From assembly GCA_023265105.1 (NCBI GenBank), contig JAHFUJ010000001.1:15243-79242 (forward strand): DNA of 64,000 nt. Reading direction: 5' to 3'. The DNA is from Acidobacteriota bacterium. GTDB lineage: Bacteria; Acidobacteriota; Vicinamibacteria; Vicinamibacterales; CAVVIG01. A program made the position numbers. Numbering within the stretch: position 1 is the first letter of the stretch; the number at the start of each line of letters is the position of its first letter. Below, piece by piece: positions 30,001 to 39,000 of this stretch.

Positions 30001-33000
30001 GCACGTGCAGCAACTACGGCGTGTCGAGCCCGGATGTTCTGGCGGACGAGGACGCGCCGCTTCGCCCGCTGGGAACTTACGCGGCGTCGAAGGTGTTGGC
30101 CGAGCAGATGGCGCTCGCTCATACGGGACGTTTGCTGACGTGCGGTCTCCGGCTCGGAACGATTTGCGGGCTGTCGCCGCATATGCGATTCGACCTGCTG
30201 ATCAATGACATGGCCCGTGCTGCGGTGCTCGGCGACGCGATCGACATCTTCGCGCCCGATGCGTGGCGACCCTTCCTTCACATCTGCGACGCGGCGAGGG
30301 CCGTGGAATGGGCGCTGCAGGCGCCCGAGGACGTCGTGGCGCGGCAGGTCTTCAATGTCGTCGGCGAAAACTATCAGAAGAAGCAGCTGATCGACCTGGT
30401 GAGAGCGCACTATCCGGATGCGTCGATCAGGATCACGCCTGGCGTTCCGGACGCACGCGATTACAGAGTGGCCGGGGATCGCATTCGCGAGTGCGGCGGA
30501 TTCTCGCCCGCGCACACGATTGATGCGGCGTTTACTGAGGTGGCAGAGGCGGTCCGCGCGGGCGTCTTCCGCGACCCCCGATGGGCGGGGCACTCCGCCG
30601 CGCCGGCGGTCTGGCGCTAGCGCCCCATCGGCGTTCGTCGGCAGGAGTCGTATGGACATCTCGGTCATCGGTCTCGGGAAAGTTGGATTGAGCCTGGTCT
30701 CATGCCTGGTCGCAGCGGGCCACAAGGTGATCGGCGTCGACATCGATCTTGCGGTCGTCGAGGCTGTCAACCGGCGGGCCCTCCAGACCCAGGAGCCTGG
30801 CGTCCTGGAGCGGCTGCGACTGGCGCCGCAGGCCGCTCTGGTGGCGACCGCGGATCTCGCTCAGGCCGTCCGCGACACGGAACTGACCTTCGTGATCGTC
30901 CCGACGCCGAGCAACACGCTCGGCGGCTTTTCGCTGCGGCACGTGCTGCGCGCGTGCGACGACATCGGCGCCGGGGTGCGGGCCAAGTCCGCCGACCACA
31001 CGGTCGCGATCGTCAGCACGCTCCTGCCCGGATCGAGCGATGCGGTCGTGATACCTCGGCTCGAGCAGGCCTCGGGCCGCAAGATCGGCGCGGGCCTTCT
31101 GTACTGCTATAACCCGTCGTTCATCGCGCTCGGCGAAGTCGTCAAGGGGTTCGAGCAGCCCGACTACCTGCTGATCGGCGAAACCGATCGGCGGCCTGGC
31201 GACATCGTCCTGGCGATCCACAAGTCGATCGTCAAGGTGAACCCGCCGGTTGCGAGGATGACGCCGGTCGAAGCCGAGATCGCAAAGGTCGCGTCCAACA
31301 CGCACGAGACCATGCGCGTGTCGTTTGCCAACATGCTGCTGACCGTCTGTTCGGAGGTGCCGGGAGCGAACGTGGATCGAATCACCGACGCCCTCGCGCA
31401 CCGCATGGGTCGGCGGTTCTTCAAAGGCGCCGTTCCCTATGGGGGGCCGTGCTGGCCGCGCGACAACCAGGCGTTCTCCGCCTTCATCGACATGATTGGG
31501 GCGGTCTCGACGCTGCCCCGCGCGGTCGACACGTTCAATGACGAGCACGCCCGATTCGTGTTGCGCAAGATCCTCGAGCTGTCGTCTCCTGGCGAAACCG
31601 TCGGTCTGCTCGGCCTGGCGTACAAACCCGGGACACCCGTTGTGGAGCGAGCGTTCGCGATCGATCTCTCGCGCTGGCTGGTGCGCGAACGGCGGTGCGT
31701 CATCGGGTGGGATCCCCTGGCTATTGACGGGGCGCGGGACGTCCTCGGCGATCGGATCACGTTCGAGCCCGTTGTCGAGGACTGTCTGCGACAGTCCGAC
31801 GTGGCGGTAATCACGATCCCGCTCCGCGAGCTCCAAGGCGTGAACTGGGCCTCCGGCAGCCACCTGCGGATGGTCGATTGCTGGCGCTGTCTGCCGGCCG
31901 ACGCGGCGGCCTGTTTCGCCGAGTACGTTCCGCTAGGACGCGGCCCGTCGACGCACGTCGGGGGTTGGCTGGAGAAGACGGCCGGCGATCGCTTCCGGCT
32001 GCTGACGAGTTGATCGGGCGTGCAGCAACCACTGATCTCGCTGGCGCTGGCCGTCAAGAACGGACTACCCCACCTCCGGTCGGCCATCGAAGCCGTGCAG
32101 CGCCAGGGGTATCGGCGTTACGAGCTCGTCGTGCAGGACGGTGGCTCGACCGATGGGTCGCTGGACTACCTCCTGTCCGTGAGGAAGAGCATCCCGGTTT
32201 GTCGAATCGAATCGGCGCCCGACGCTGGAGTCGGGCAGGCCTACAATCGCGCGCTGGCTCGCTGCGCTGGCGAACTGGTCTGCTTCATCGCGAGCGACGA
32301 GCGGCTCGAAGACGATGCACTGGAGCGGGCGGTGGGGTGGTGGCGCCGGCACGCCGATGCCGTCTACGTCAACGGCAGCGTGCGGCTGGTCGACGGCGCG
32401 GGTGCGGTCACTCAAGTGTTCGACTCGCCGCACTTCGACCTGCTCGGACACTTGCGGTGCGAAGTCGTGCTGGCGTTTGCCGGCCTGCTCAACGCGAAGA
32501 AAATCGGAAGCGATCTGTACTACGACGAAGCGCTTCGGACCTGCCCCGACTACGACTTCTGGATACGGCTCGGCTCCAGATTTGGCCCGGAGGATTTCTT
32601 CGTGGCTCCCGAGGTGTTCAAGACGGCCCGGGCGGACCGCGCCAGTATGTCGTACCGCGCCGACCGGTTCCCGCAGTTCTGCGCCGACAAGCTGTTCGTG
32701 CTGAACCGCTTCCTCGACGCGCAGACTGCGGGCCCGCTCATCGAGGCGGTGCGCCGATCCTCGAGCGCCGGCATCCTGCTGTGGGCTGCCGAACAGGTGG
32801 CGTACCTGGAGGGGTTGTCGTCATTGTTCGTCCGGCTCTGCGAACGGGCGGCGGCATTCGATCCGTGGTCGCCACGTCTCCAAAAACTAGTGGCCGACTC
32901 TGCGCGCCGTCCCGTGCCCCGCGGTTGATGGCGACGTTCGATACATCGATCCGAGAGTCCCCCGCATGACGGAACGGTCCGAACCGTTATTGAGCATCGT

Positions 33001-36000: not shown

Positions 36001-39000
36001 GCGCAGTTGAAGGCGTACGACATGAATCGGTGGCGGAGCGCCCACCGTGACGTTGTCAGCGAGCGCGCATCCGAAGGGATCGTGGTGCGCTCCGCTCCGG
36101 CTCGGCAGTCGTACTGCTTGCGATACGGACCTTTCTATGCGCCGCGGGACGATCGCTACACGTTCGTGGTGGACTGCACGTGCCACGAGGGCAACGTCGC
36201 GTTACACGTGGTCGACGAATGGTCCGATTGCTGGATTCCCTCCGAAGAGTACGAGCTGGCGGACGGCGAGCGCCGCAGCTTGTTCGTGTCATTGAACATG
36301 ACACGTGGACAAGTGTGGTCCTTGTACATCGCGAACCACTACCGAGGCGGCGACGGTGTGTCGAGGTTTGCGGTCCGCTCCGTCAGCGGATCCGTGCCGT
36401 TGAACGAGCTGGAGTTGCGAAAAAACGTGCGCGTTCTTCTGCTGGCTGCTCGCCGAGTCACATCGAAGGTGCTCCGGAGCGTGGTGCGTCTGGCGGGCAG
36501 CCTGTATCCAACGAGTGCGGCGATCAGGCGTCCGATGAAGCACGATGGTGCGGAAGCTCATGTACCCCAGCCGCACGCGAACGCCTCCGGCCGCGTCGAG
36601 CTCACCGCCCGAATCGAGGAGTACTGCAAGCAGAACCGCCTGGCCGCCGTCCATCGGAACGCGGCCGGCGATTTTCAGCTGATGGCGCGGGAGCACTGGT
36701 TCGAGTTGCACGGCTATCCAGAGTTCACCATGTACTCGATGAATGCCGACGGCCTCCTTGGAGACATCGCGCATCACGCCGGCGTCACCGAGGAGGTCCT
36801 CTCGGTGCCTCGCTGCATCTATCACCTCGAGCACGCCGAAGGCTCGGGGTGGACGCCCGAAGGCGAAGGGCTGCTCCGGAAACGTCTGGCCGACAGCGGC
36901 GCCGACTGGCTCGACGCGGCTACCGTAGACCTGTGGAGCGCGTACATGGACTGGCTGAAGCGGCCGATGATTTTCAACGGATCCGACTGGGGTGTCGGTA
37001 ACGCCGTGCTGCGCGAGACGACACTCGAAACGGTCGTCGACAACGTCTGAGGTGCGGAATCGCAGTGGGTGCGTCCGCCGACGGCCCTTGGAAGCGGCTG
37101 ACGCATGACCGCTATCCTCGGGATCTCGGCCTTCTATCACGATTCCGCTGCGGCGCTCGTCGTGGACGGAACGATTGTCGCCGCCGCCCAAGAAGAGCGC
37201 TTCAGCCGCCGGAAGCACGACGAGGCATTTCCGACTCGCGCCATCCGGTTCTGTCTTGACGAAGCGCGGCTTTCGGCCGAGCAGATCGATTACGTCGGCT
37301 TCTACGATAAACCGTTCCTGAAGTTCGGCCGGCTCATCGAAACGTATCTCTCGTATGCGCCGCACGGATTTCGATCCTTCGCGAAGGCGATGCCCGTCTG
37401 GCTGAACAAGAAACTGCACCTGACGCGCGAGATGCGAGCGGGGCTCGGAGACGGCTACCAGAAGCAATTTGTGTTTACCGAGCACCACGAGTCGCATGCG
37501 GCCAGCGCGTTTTACCCTTCGCCGTTCGAAGAGGCCGCGATCCTGACCATGGACGGCGTTGGTGAATGGGCGACCGCCAGCGTGGGTCGCGGCCACGGCC
37601 ACACGATCGAGCTGCTGCAACAGCAGGAATTCCCCCATTCGCTCGGTCTGCTGTATTCAGCCTTCACGTCTTACTGCGGGTTCACCGCGAACAGCGGAGA
37701 ATACAAGCTCATGGGCCTGGCTCCGTACGGCAGCCCGCGATACGCCGACGCGATCCTGCAAAAGCTCGTGGACTTGAAAGACGACGGTTCCTTTCGGATG
37801 GACATGTCGTTTTTCAACTACTGCGAGGGTCTGACGATGACGTCGGAGAAATTCCACACACTCTTTGGTGGACCACCGCGCCGGCCTGACACGCCGCTCA
37901 CCGAACGAGACATGGACGTCGCCGCGTCGATTCAAAAAGTCACCGAAGAGATCATGATGCGGTCTGCAGTTCATGCGCACGCCCTCACGGGCATGAACAA
38001 GCTGTGTCTCGCCGGCGGTGTCGCTCTGAACTCGGTCGCGAACGGGCGGGTTCTCCGCGAAGGCCCATTCGACGACATTTGGATCCAGCCGGCCGCTGGT
38101 GACGCCGGCGGCGCGCTGGGCGTCGCGCTATTCATCTGGCACCAGCTCCTGGACAAGCCTCGGGTACCGAATCCATGTGACTCGCAGCGGGGCTCGTTGC
38201 TGGGGCCGTCGTTCTCGCCTGAGGAGATCGAAGAAGTCCTGCGCCAGTCACGCGCGGTGTACGACCGCATCGACGACGAGCAGGTGCTTGTCGACACGAT
38301 TGCGGACCTCGCGTCCGGCGGAGCCGTGATCGGATGGTTCCAGGGGAGCATGGAATTTGGTCCGAGGGCCCTCGGCTCGCGAAGCATTCTCGGCGACCCG
38401 CGCAATCGCACCATGCAGACGGTCATGAACATGAAGGTCAAGTTCCGTGAGGGATTTCGACCGTTCGCGCCCGCCGTGCTGCGTGAAGCGGCTTCCACAT
38501 ACTTCGATGTCGAGAGCGAGATCGACAGTCCGTACATGTTGTTCGTTGTGCCGCTTTCACCGAAGCGGAGGTTGCCGGTTACGCCGAATGAGAAAATGGC
38601 GAAAGGCCTGGACACGCTGAAGGTCGTCCGATCAGAAATTCCAGCGGTCACCCACGTGGACTATTCCGCCCGGGTACAGACCGTCGATCCGGTCCGGCAC
38701 GGGCTGTACCGGAAGCTTCTCGAATCGTTCCACCGGAAGACCGGTTGTCCGGTCCTCGTCAACACCAGTTTCAATCTGGGATGGGATCCGATCGTCTGCA
38801 CGCCGCACGACGCGTATTCGACCTTCATGGCCAGCGACATCGACGTGCTGTGCATGGGTCCCTTTGTCGTCTCGAAGAAGGCGCAGCCGGCAACGATTCA
38901 GTCGGCCCGCGGGTCGGGCATGCAGCCGTGGGAGGAGGCGCTCCGGTGCCCGTGTGGCTGCGGCGGCGCACTCCGCGATCAGGGCACCGCTCTTGTGAGC

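Follow-up and report, generated by a model that had tools for sequence, protein, structure and literature searches.

The window analysed here, 64,000 nucleotides of contig JAHFUJ010000001.1 (positions 15,243 to 79,242) from an Acidobacteriota bacterium of the Vicinamibacterales, carries two adjacent paralogous open reading frames, ORF1 and ORF2. We consider it probable (about 0.7) that they encode coupled cytoplasmic glycosyltransferases (GTs) of the GT-A fold whose catalytic chain is broken, at the hypervariable region HV2, by two domains that resemble carbohydrate-binding modules (CBMs) and bind glycan, and by an amphipathic linker. Judged from sequence, their most likely function would be that of two cooperating peripheral-membrane enzymes with built-in binding of the acceptor glycan.

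A preliminary description of this DNA had reported two neighbouring paralogues of 671 and 689 amino acids (aa) joined by TGATG, and both the ORF list and the sequence bear this out (Table 1). At the junction, GTGTGATGCGC, one base (A) is common to the TGA of ORF1 and the ATG of ORF2, an overlap that suggests that the two genes may be translationally coupled; the ATG of ORF2 sits inside a longer ORF that starts with GTG. BLASTP aligns the two proteins over their full length, without large gaps, at 47% identity. By segment, the identity is 62–64% in the N-terminal catalytic piece (it had been put at 55–60% by eye, which was about right), 65% in the C-terminal piece, 42% in module 1, 31% in module 2, and 18% in the helical linker, and hidden Markov models (HMMs) of all four pieces match ORF2 in the order found in ORF1. 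Every one of the GT-type motifs quoted at the outset was found in both proteins: SIVVATRNDDHGGD / SVVVTSRNDAHGGD, GIRRARGRFVL(A/S)TNIDIIF, NA(S/A)GDFQLMAREHW..L.GYPE, and IYHLEH..GSGWTPEGE. The set is not a product of chance, since the same motifs occur in the same order in thousands of homologues.

The two halves of the catalytic domain

An AlphaFold2 model of ORF1, built from a 55-sequence alignment, has a mean predicted local distance difference test score (pLDDT) of 85 and a predicted template modelling score (pTM) of 0.78. According to DSSP, it runs from an alpha/beta region (residues 9–183) through two segments made of strands only (~196–335 and ~345–462) and a set of helices (465–533) into a second alpha/beta region (547–664). 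Searched against the PDB with Foldseek, the N-terminal part matches K4CP (2Z86/2Z87) and AvpGT over just 148–166 columns, with a root-mean-square deviation of 3.3–5.0. Homologues of only 347–400 aa are matched by the profile in two stretches, one N-terminal (~8–186) and one C-terminal (~546–688). In these short forms, the spacing from the '...IRVxxR' strand to '...LHxNACGDF...' is only 35–90 residues, and the beta modules are missing. For example, residues 6–196 of the insert-less P0262 (350 aa) align with ORF1 7–196 at 47% identity, and its residues 204–346 align with ORF1 527–664 at 43%.

Modelled by AlphaFold on the basis of 52 short forms, P0262 is predicted to fold into one compact domain (pLDDT 86.8, pTM 0.89). 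All 50 of its 50 best PDB matches are GT-A glycosyltransferases, aligned over 288–384 columns at a probability of 1.00 with E values down to 3e-8; they include K4CP, GalNAc-T1/T2/T3, WrtF, AvpGT, GtrB, CHSY3, and a Leptospira GT, and the template modelling scores (TM-scores), normalised by target length, reach 0.53–0.67. The match of ORF1 is short because a sequential aligner stops where the domain is interrupted, and the contrast of ~300 or more aligned columns in the short form with ~150 in ORF1 therefore indicates a single domain that an insert has broken up. The N and C pieces are thus predicted to make up one GT-A domain, in ORF1 by way of its 43–47% identity to P0262. They always co-occur in that order, whatever intervenes, and none of the profile searches placed the C piece in some other, unrelated family.

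The insertion of foreign domains into one GT-A fold, as proposed in the preliminary description, is accordingly supported by the insert-less forms, the P0262 model, and the tandem CBM matches described below; the two outcomes named beforehand as speaking against it, pieces that do not form one domain and a C piece of unrelated family, were not encountered. The gap of ~400 residues given there stands as a spacing of motifs, for G-D-F (residues 545–547 of ORF1) follows 424 residues after N-I-D (119–121), but the extra segment is only ~330 aa long (197–526), because residues 122–196 are conserved in insert-less homologues and are part of the catalytic domain.

Residues conserved to at least 90% across 220 diverse domains (ORF1 numbering) are, on the N side, R16, N17, D18, H20, G21, G22, R27, Q29, E47, W53, N54, P55, H86, Q99, M100, K103, N104, G106, R108, R109, G112, T118, N119, and D121 and, on the C side, G545, D546, F547, W555, E563, S568, D572, G583, H597, E599, H600, W652, and G653. 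N119 is conserved to 98% and D121 to 100%, and G545-D-F, S568..D572, and H597/H600 to 95–99%. In ORF1, the N half comprises beta1 with R-N-D-x-H-G-G (residues 16–22), E-W-N-P-P (52–56), K-N-x-G-x-R-R-A-x-G (103–112), N-I-D at the DxD position, and Y-R-V-D-R-H-D (143–149); G-D-F in the C half is followed by W555, E563, the xED-like S568..D572, H597-x-E599-H600, which resembles a C-terminal His, and W652-G653. Both ORFs retain all of the residues conserved to at least 90%, polar ones included, which suggests that both are active enzymes. The G-loop, the xED base, and the C-terminal His of the second half of GT-A domains have been defined (PMC7185993). D121 is a putative ligand of the metal or the diphosphate, G545-D-F would be the G-loop strand, D572 is a putative xED-type base, and H597 (or H600) is a putative C-terminal His.

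For comparison with family GT2, we built a profile of 52 canonical domains from genes flanking family members, seeded with the GT2 enzyme of the window at 32020–32925 (PF00535, E 2.4e-16); no row of it overlaps a family domain. Using hhalign, the N piece matches this profile with a probability of 96.2% (E 2.6e-9, 101 columns), which places N-I-D on DxD, 'PYLSVVVT(S/T)RN' on 'P.VSVI.P..N', and 'KNVGIRRARGRF' on 'A.N.G...A.GE(Y/I)'. The whole short form matches with a probability of 89.9% (E 1.7e-6, 232 columns). Alignments by hhalign to single GT2 sequences were uninformative and are superseded by this profile. We also rejected a register that places GDF on DyD, which appears in the low-confidence C-terminal part of the alignment of the whole short form, because three motifs are in register with the bridge protein described next and with the C-piece alignment.

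This bridge protein (L012 3715, + strand; 423 residues stop to stop) is encoded in a Bryobacterales genome beside a 578-residue family member. Its score is 168 bits against the family profile and 27.8 bits against a GT2 profile built without it, and it is collinear with GT2 from beta1 to 'NACGDFLLMARALWMRIGGWEES..STDYD', which aligns against 'paa..firrslfekvGgldesl..seDyD'. There is no H-G-G after its R-N-D, and L-D-H replaces N-I-D. Since it is matched by both the family profile and the canonical GT2 profile, we take it to be a probable evolutionary intermediate. PF00535 itself (cut-off 23.3 bits) matches neither ORF1 nor ORF2 at E<=1, and the best short form reaches 14.8 bits (E 0.027). Weak matches to PF13896 (Glyco_transf_49, GT49) occur around the DxD position in 17 of the 52 short forms (best E 0.011); they score ~11–14 bits against a gathering score of 27 bits, and the family consensus gives none. 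We conclude that, on its sequence profile, the family appears to be a remote relative of GT2 and not a member by the usual sequence criteria.

The family is large and has gone almost without a label. Neither ORF1 nor ORF2 has a Pfam or NCBIfam match at E<=1, a Pfam search with family consensus sequences returned nothing significant, and the same holds for PDB sequences searched with ORF1, a spliced profile, or a short-form profile. Word-indexed searching brought up over 2,000 homologues, nearly all of them metagenomic 'hypothetical proteins' without a precomputed Pfam domain. When a profile was run exhaustively against 1.84 billion cluster representatives, 3,961 proteins matched at E<=1e-3 and 1,471 at E<=1e-30, so the size of the family, in clusters at 50% identity, is at least 3,961. 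The bacterial carriers in a scan that took one genome from each species belong to the Acidobacteriota, Planctomycetota, Verrucomicrobiota, Nitrospirota, Desulfobacterota, Alpha- and Gammaproteobacteria, Chloroflexota, Bacillota, Bacteroidota, and Actinomycetes. Among cultured Bacillota, Clostridium sp. OS1-26 and Metabacillus herbersteinensis have a member, and archaeal carriers include Methanoregula formicica, Methanomicrobiales, and Thermoplasmata. The nearest genomes are Vicinamibacterales (62–63% identity). The sole functional label that we met is 'Glycosyltransferase', given by UniRef to the Methanoregula short form. As the family has no Pfam or NCBIfam model and no solved relative, and almost only 'hypothetical protein' labels, these enzymes are overlooked by annotation, and pipelines therefore miss them in many environmental polysaccharide gene clusters. 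One further member, a 598-aa ORF (606 residues stop to stop) at 6001–7797 of locus L052, lies on a metagenome-assembled contig whose label, Klebsiella pneumoniae, is doubtful; it has a C-terminal extension of ~240 aa, and many Opitutaceae and Nitrospira members have a similar one.

Nested modules, insertion site, and linker

The insert (~residues 197–526 of ORF1) consists of two strand-only segments followed by a helical linker, and DSSP thereby confirms an intervening region that had been called beta-rich with two sub-modules. Foldseek matches of the beta region include the tandem CBM22-CBM22 (4XUP), CBM51 (2YGL), the CBM35 of Xyn30D (4QAW), BcsB, and Vip3 domains, with E values of 7e-8 to 1e-5 and probabilities of ~1.0; the TM-scores are low, as they are normalised by whole-protein length. 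Modules 1 and 2 are predicted jelly-roll, CBM-like beta-sandwich domains. Neither the modules nor the module consensus has a Pfam match, hence no CBM family membership is assigned by sequence; the modules have no sequence similarity to Wzt_C, and modules 1 and 2 have no detectable homology to each other.

The short forms have the order beta1-alphaA-beta2-beta3-alphaC-beta4-[NID]-beta5-alphaD-beta6-..-[two helices]-beta7(GDF)-alphaE-alphaF-beta8(YHxEH)-tail. By this order of secondary structure, not by superposition, the insertion site would lie between beta6 and beta7, in HV2, whose family-specific residues determine acceptor specificity in GT-A enzymes (PMC7185993). We took a census of the modules with piece-specific HMMs in 150 family representatives and 92 ORFs from genome loci. 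The same site holds between zero and seven modules, and the gap between the N and C pieces ranges from 11 to 1,050 residues. Proteins with no module have 347–400 aa, those with one have ~450–600 aa, and others have two, as in ORF1 and ORF2. At the upper end, P0194 (1,322 aa) carries six copies of the module 1 type, the maximum, and P0127 (1,206 aa) carries one module 1 and four copies of module 2. Module 1 of ORF1 starts with G-W-H-x-x-E-G...Y-R-W, and ORF2 has GWHIREGD..YRW at nucleotide 35620; the general form, G-(W/F)-x-x-x-E...(F/Y)-R-W, stands at the start of 90 of 132 module 1 copies. Because copies usually begin with it, it is best read as a signature of the module, not as part of the active site.

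One sub-module had been said to recur in unrelated enzymes of the locus, which holds, at modest significance, for one methyltransferase and for no other enzyme of the window. Among 366 six-frame ORFs, the module 2 profile matches the C-terminus of the methyltransferase at 24966–26165 (hmmsearch, E 5.8e-4) and no further ORF; hhalign gives E 2e-4 over 98 columns with a probability of 47%, the target being a single sequence. The methyltransferase (24966–26168 with its stop codon, + strand) has an S-adenosylmethionine (SAM) domain at aa 74–198, assigned by Pfam, and an extra beta-rich C-terminal domain of ~110 aa. A database search with that domain returned 6 fragments only, with no domain context. 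A tblastn match of ORF2 residues 253–360 to 16945–17343 (E 0.022) was discarded as chance: it falls in a methyltransferase catalytic domain and was not reproduced by profiles.

Signal peptides and transmembrane helices are absent from both proteins, in which the Kyte-Doolittle mean over 19 residues peaks at 1.4–1.5. In the linker of ORF1, helices span residues 475–489, 493–516, and 519–533, and the pLDDT is below 50 for residues 473–509. In each protein, the most amphipathic 18-residue window falls in this low-confidence linker just past the modules: residues 474–491 of ORF1, ASTFARVVRRLGDVAVRF, have a hydrophobic moment of 0.78, the highest in the protein, and residues 492–509 of ORF2 have 0.71, again the protein maximum, in a linker with 16 K+R and 7 D+E. 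Across 120 representative units, the charge of the linker averages +4.4 and is net positive in 75%, and 49 units have their most amphipathic window there; a few short forms have an outright hydrophobic linker. The linker may thus be a peripheral membrane-binding element next to the acceptor loop, which would suit an enzyme acting on a lipid-linked glycan.

Proposed function and competing explanations

The analysis shows the ORFs and their motifs, the family with its insert-less forms and their GT-A fold, the CBM-like fold of the insert, the changing number of modules, and the paired or fused catalytic units. From these we infer enzymatic activity, use of a metal, a catalytic base, binding to the membrane, glycan-binding modules, and a division of labour between ORF1 and ORF2, which can be put together as follows. 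The enzymes would sit on the inner face of the membrane by means of the amphipathic linker. The N half would bind the nucleotide sugar, D121 together with H597 or H600 would coordinate a divalent metal, D572 would serve as the general base, and sugars would be passed to a lipid-linked glycan whose modified amino and uronic sugars are products of the surrounding genes. The nested modules, emerging from the acceptor-specificity loop, would keep the growing glycan near the active site, and the two paralogues would add two different residues, probably consecutive or alternating ones.

Several observations weigh against this proposal. Pfam, NCBIfam, and PDB sequences give no match above threshold, and we found no biochemical data for any family member. 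The TM-scores of P0262 are modest when normalised by query length (0.38–0.48). The packing of the N and C pieces in ORF1 itself is predicted through homology to the short form, and the C piece alone has no significant match to GT2 (E 0.26), its best alignment being in the expected register. The putative equivalents of xED and the C-terminal His rest on motif register, the bridge protein, and the fold match. CBM-like folds also act as spacers or oligomerisation domains. N-x-D stands in place of DxD, and E-W-N in place of the nucleotide-binding D-D that follows beta2 in GT2; because these motifs and R-N-D-x-H-G-G replace the usual GT2 residues, both the donor and the dependence on metal are uncertain. 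In the GT2 enzyme WrtF, a degenerate DxD (GADD) goes with metal independence (PMC12595478). Finally, Wzm and Wzt lie in a block of lower guanine-cytosine (GC) content and occur within 6 kb of the family in only 7 (Wzm) and 10 (Wzt) of 77 loci, and for these reasons an ABC export route is not established.

An explanation that keeps GT-A catalysis and takes away glycan binding would make the modules a spacer or ruler that fixes how far the active site lies from the membrane-binding linker, and so product length, or a scaffold for oligomerisation or docking (e.g., of ORF1 to ORF2). The variable number of modules at one site, zero to seven, is what a length-setting element might look like, little of module 2 is conserved (31% identity between the paralogues, few residues invariant), an amphipathic and cationic linker follows the modules, and the Wzt of the locus has a C-terminal binding domain, as in a type of system with regulated chain length (PMC11231755). 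However, the array is tethered at both ends to one catalytic domain, and linker length is not proportional to the modules (~74 aa with two, 109–130 aa with five to six), which makes a linear ruler geometrically awkward. The known rulers in such pathways are coiled coils outside the GT domains (WbdD, WbbB). With CBMs as the best structural matches and the acceptor-binding region HV2 as the insertion loop, we regard the spacer or scaffold as unlikely. An extension of the glycan-binding proposal goes further: the family would be a new GT family (a candidate CAZy family) of polysaccharide co-polymerases, in which the zero to seven HV2 modules act as a processivity clamp or length sensor and an ORF1-ORF2 heterodimer alternates sugars. 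We hold this to be a long shot; if true, both the kind and the amount of glycan kept at the active site would be encoded in the number and type of the modules.

The replacement of the GT2 nucleotide-binding residues by R-N-D-x-H-G-G, E-W-N-P-P, and N-x-D, and the lack of any GT family model above threshold (PF13896 at E 0.011 and PF00535 at E 0.027 being sub-threshold), would also suit a GT-A-like fold with other chemistry, such as transfer of a sugar phosphate or a non-sugar group, or transfer to polyprenyl phosphate only, or an inactive glycan-binding scaffold. This is improbable, for all 50 top structural matches are glycosyltransferases, the order of motifs is that of GT2, and family units are fused to canonical GT2 modules as in multi-GT polymerases; ~20 polar residues strictly conserved across bacteria, archaea, and both paralogues speak against an inactive scaffold. 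Moreover, variants of DxD that contain N are present in bona fide GT2 fucosyltransferases (PMC12595478). That the split is only apparent, the N piece being a truncated nucleotide-binding domain and the C piece an unrelated, independent one, could draw on the insignificant GT2 match of the C piece alone and on the use of the short form as a stand-in for ORF1, but we find it scarcely credible: the pieces co-occur in fixed order whatever lies between them, the insert-less form is one domain (pTM 0.89) to which GT-A enzymes align across both pieces, and the GT2 profile aligns through the junction in the bridge protein.

Genomic setting and known systems

The tandem pair is kept in Vicinamibacterales genomes, with both types side by side. 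In another Acidobacteriota contig (L001), it is followed, as in the window, by AsnB, 2-epimerase, heparinase II/III-like, ADH/GFO, and GT4-methyltransferase genes. Two catalytic units occur in 19 of 77 genome loci, fused (N-C-N-C) in 8 and as separate genes in 11. Planctomycetota and Verrucomicrobiota have proteins of ~750–2,700 residues stop to stop in which family units are joined to between one and three canonical GT2 domains. Planctomycetota loci L020, L032, L038, L039, L041, L022, and L030 have ORFs of ~2,070–3,240 residues stop to stop with two tandem family units, most of which also carry up to three canonical GT2 domains, and Verrucomicrobiota loci L023, L029, L037, L048, and L054 have ORFs of ~970–1,080 residues with one family unit and one GT2. 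These large fusions are candidate single-chain polymerases. SAM methyltransferase genes are found in 48 of the 77 loci, as are canonical GT2 genes. Carbamoyltransferase, AsnB, 2-epimerase, and heparinase-like genes are not general companions (2–5 of 77 loci).

The window forms one long, operon-like glycan locus on the + strand. It encodes GT2 and GT4 enzymes, many methyltransferases, two UDP-sugar dehydrogenases, a DegT aminotransferase, epimerases, dehydratases, two AsnB-like amidotransferases, a carbamoyltransferase-methyltransferase fusion, a heparinase II/III-like protein, Wzm, and Wzt. This set resembles pathways for 2,3-diamino-uronic acids, e.g., of the Pseudomonas WbpA/B/E/D/I/G type, and two cooperating transferases in a heteropolysaccharide pathway fit the gene set of the locus.

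Table 1. Predicted features of the window (positions in the window; aa, amino acid residues of the respective protein)
Feature	Position	Strand	Basis or remark
ORF1, split GT-A glycosyltransferase, 671 aa	32966..34981, stop codon included	+	ORF list
ORF1 aa 1–196, N half of GT-A domain	32966..33553	+	homology to P0262, hhalign, Foldseek
ORF1 aa 197–335, nested beta-sandwich module 1	33554..33970	+	DSSP, Foldseek
ORF1 aa 345–462, nested beta-sandwich module 2	33998..34351	+	DSSP, Foldseek
ORF1 aa 463–535, helical linker back into catalytic domain	34352..34570	+	DSSP, hydrophobic moment
ORF1 aa 536–671, C half of GT-A domain and family-specific tail	34571..34978	+	homology to P0262
TGATG junction	34977..34983	+	ORF1 TGA (34979–34981) overlaps ORF2 ATG (34981–34983); read from sequence
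ORF2, paralogue with the same architecture, 689 aa	34981..37050, stop codon included	+	BLASTP, piece HMMs
ORF2 aa 1–202, N half of GT-A domain	34981..35586	+	N-piece HMM; all family-invariant residues present
ORF2 aa 203–478, modules 1 (203–346) and 2 (347–478)	35587..36414	+	module HMMs, E 1e-58
ORF2 aa 479–554, helical linker with cationic amphipathic helix (aa 492–509)	36415..36642	+	hydrophobic moment
ORF2 aa 555–689, C half of GT-A domain and tail	36643..37047	+	C-piece HMM, E 9e-75
Methyltransferase C-terminal domain, ~107 aa, module 2-like	25830..26150	+	hmmsearch, hhalign
Wzm	10228–11028	+	22 kb upstream of the pair
Wzt with Wzt_C	10964–12874	+	22 kb upstream of the pair

Other parts of the locus have peculiarities of their own. 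Wzt (637 aa, to position 12877 with its stop codon) has ~300 residues between its ABC ATPase (aa 69–199) and Wzt_C (aa 496–626). GC content is 0.53–0.59 at 10001–24000 and 0.62–0.68 elsewhere in the window; this block, which may be a horizontally acquired sub-cluster, contains wzm, wzt, a GT2 gene, three methyltransferase genes, an AsnB-like gene, two epimerase genes, and two large ORFs (15271–16824 and 17608–19782, + strand; 517 and 724 aa) that have no Pfam match and are unrelated to the split-GT family. Directly downstream of the pair, the ORF at 37105–39915 (+ strand, 936 aa) joins a carbamoyltransferase, with its N- and C-terminal Pfam domains, to a class I SAM methyltransferase, and the carbamoyltransferase part neighbours the family in only 2 of the 77 loci. 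Three consecutive, slightly overlapping ORFs of ~550–585 aa at 47955–52788 (+ strand), with a fourth at 60523–61590, have sub-threshold matches to GDSL/SGNH hydrolases and look like a tandem array of paralogues, possibly unusual acyl-esterases or acyltransferase-like proteins. The GT4 enzymes at 52801–55395 and 56006–57784 (+ strand) have N-terminal extensions of ~200 aa that do not match the nested-module profiles, and the first of them carries a fused methyltransferase at its C-terminus as well. The window has two copies of several pathway genes, namely UDP-GlcNAc 2-epimerases (9138–10205 and 42538–43674), AsnB-like genes (19819–21753 and 40580–42580), and UDP-sugar dehydrogenases (26263–27684 and 30652–32013), which suggests that two glycan pathways may lie side by side.

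Several characterised systems share parts of this architecture. The best structural matches are GT-A enzymes of family GT2: K4CP (the E. coli K4 chondroitin polymerase, 2Z86/2Z87), Rhizobium WrtF (9OMH and related entries), and GtrB (9NYC). The likeness extends to the order of motifs (beta1, N-x-G-x-x-x-A-x-G-x-F, (D/N)xD, a G-containing strand, a D-containing helix start, His) and to their place in polysaccharide clusters, and K4CP has two GT modules, as the pair has. WrtF-type GT2 enzymes also have a degenerate DxD, GADD or N(A/S)GD (PMC12595478). In contrast, R-N-D-x-H-G-G, E-W-N-P-P, and H-x-E-H are specific to the family of ORF1 and ORF2, which has no PF00535 match above threshold. To our knowledge, whole beta-sandwich domains nested in HV2 are found in none of the GT2 structures matched by Foldseek.

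The GalNAc-transferases (GT27), likewise among the top structural matches, combine a GT-A domain with a carbohydrate-binding domain. Their motif G.F...R..F..LGGYDE...WGGEN.E......G......P.S.V.H resembles, as we take it, the family's GDFQLMAREHW..LRGYPE...S...D......G......P...IYH. Their carbohydrate-binding domain steers the enzyme to an already glycosylated acceptor (PMC4432651). However, this lectin domain is a ricin-type beta-trefoil attached at the C-terminus through a flexible linker, not nested, and GalNAc-transferases are retaining enzymes of the eukaryotic Golgi.

Among GT2 enzymes with a split domain, plant CesA is the best-known precedent: two insertions of ~100–150 aa each, P-CR and CSR, lie between its catalytic motifs. 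Helical or poorly ordered, these insertions serve oligomerisation; CesA is integrated in the membrane and has neither beta-sandwich modules nor a variable copy number. P-CR and CSR are named in the CesA domain colouring of PMC9934533. Two other leads, Klebsiella O4/O7 (new family GT137, GT-B-like fold) and substrate binding in poplar CesA8, had no bearing on the family. Functionally, ABC-transporter-dependent O-antigen synthesis, with its multi-module polymerases and terminators (WbdA, WbdD, WbbB) and Wzt, is similar in that the enzymes are cytoplasmic and membrane-peripheral, with several GT modules per protein or operon, and that a C-terminal jelly-roll module of Wzt binds the lipid-linked glycan in the cytoplasm while it is being made; both Wzm and a Wzt with Wzt_C are encoded in the window. 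In the O-antigen systems, however, it is the transporter that carries the binding module, and a coiled coil separate from the GT domains acts as the ruler.

Whole domains nested in variable number are not known to us from any characterised GT-A enzyme, the nearest precedents being CesA with its P-CR and CSR and the GalNAc-transferases with their lectin domains. What is new is thus not the fold itself but a very large family without a model and the zero to seven whole domains nested in its catalytic domain. Forms with zero, one, two, or many modules around the same catalytic core amount to a natural experiment, from which one could learn how a transferase in the cytoplasm keeps hold of a lipid-linked glycan as it grows. 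Proof of activity could allow a new glycosyltransferase family to be defined, with a module-swapping site that may lend itself to engineering. Set beside the known enzymes, whole domains nested in the acceptor loop would be an extreme case of the diversification, described in the literature, of GT-A enzymes by expansion of their hypervariable loops.

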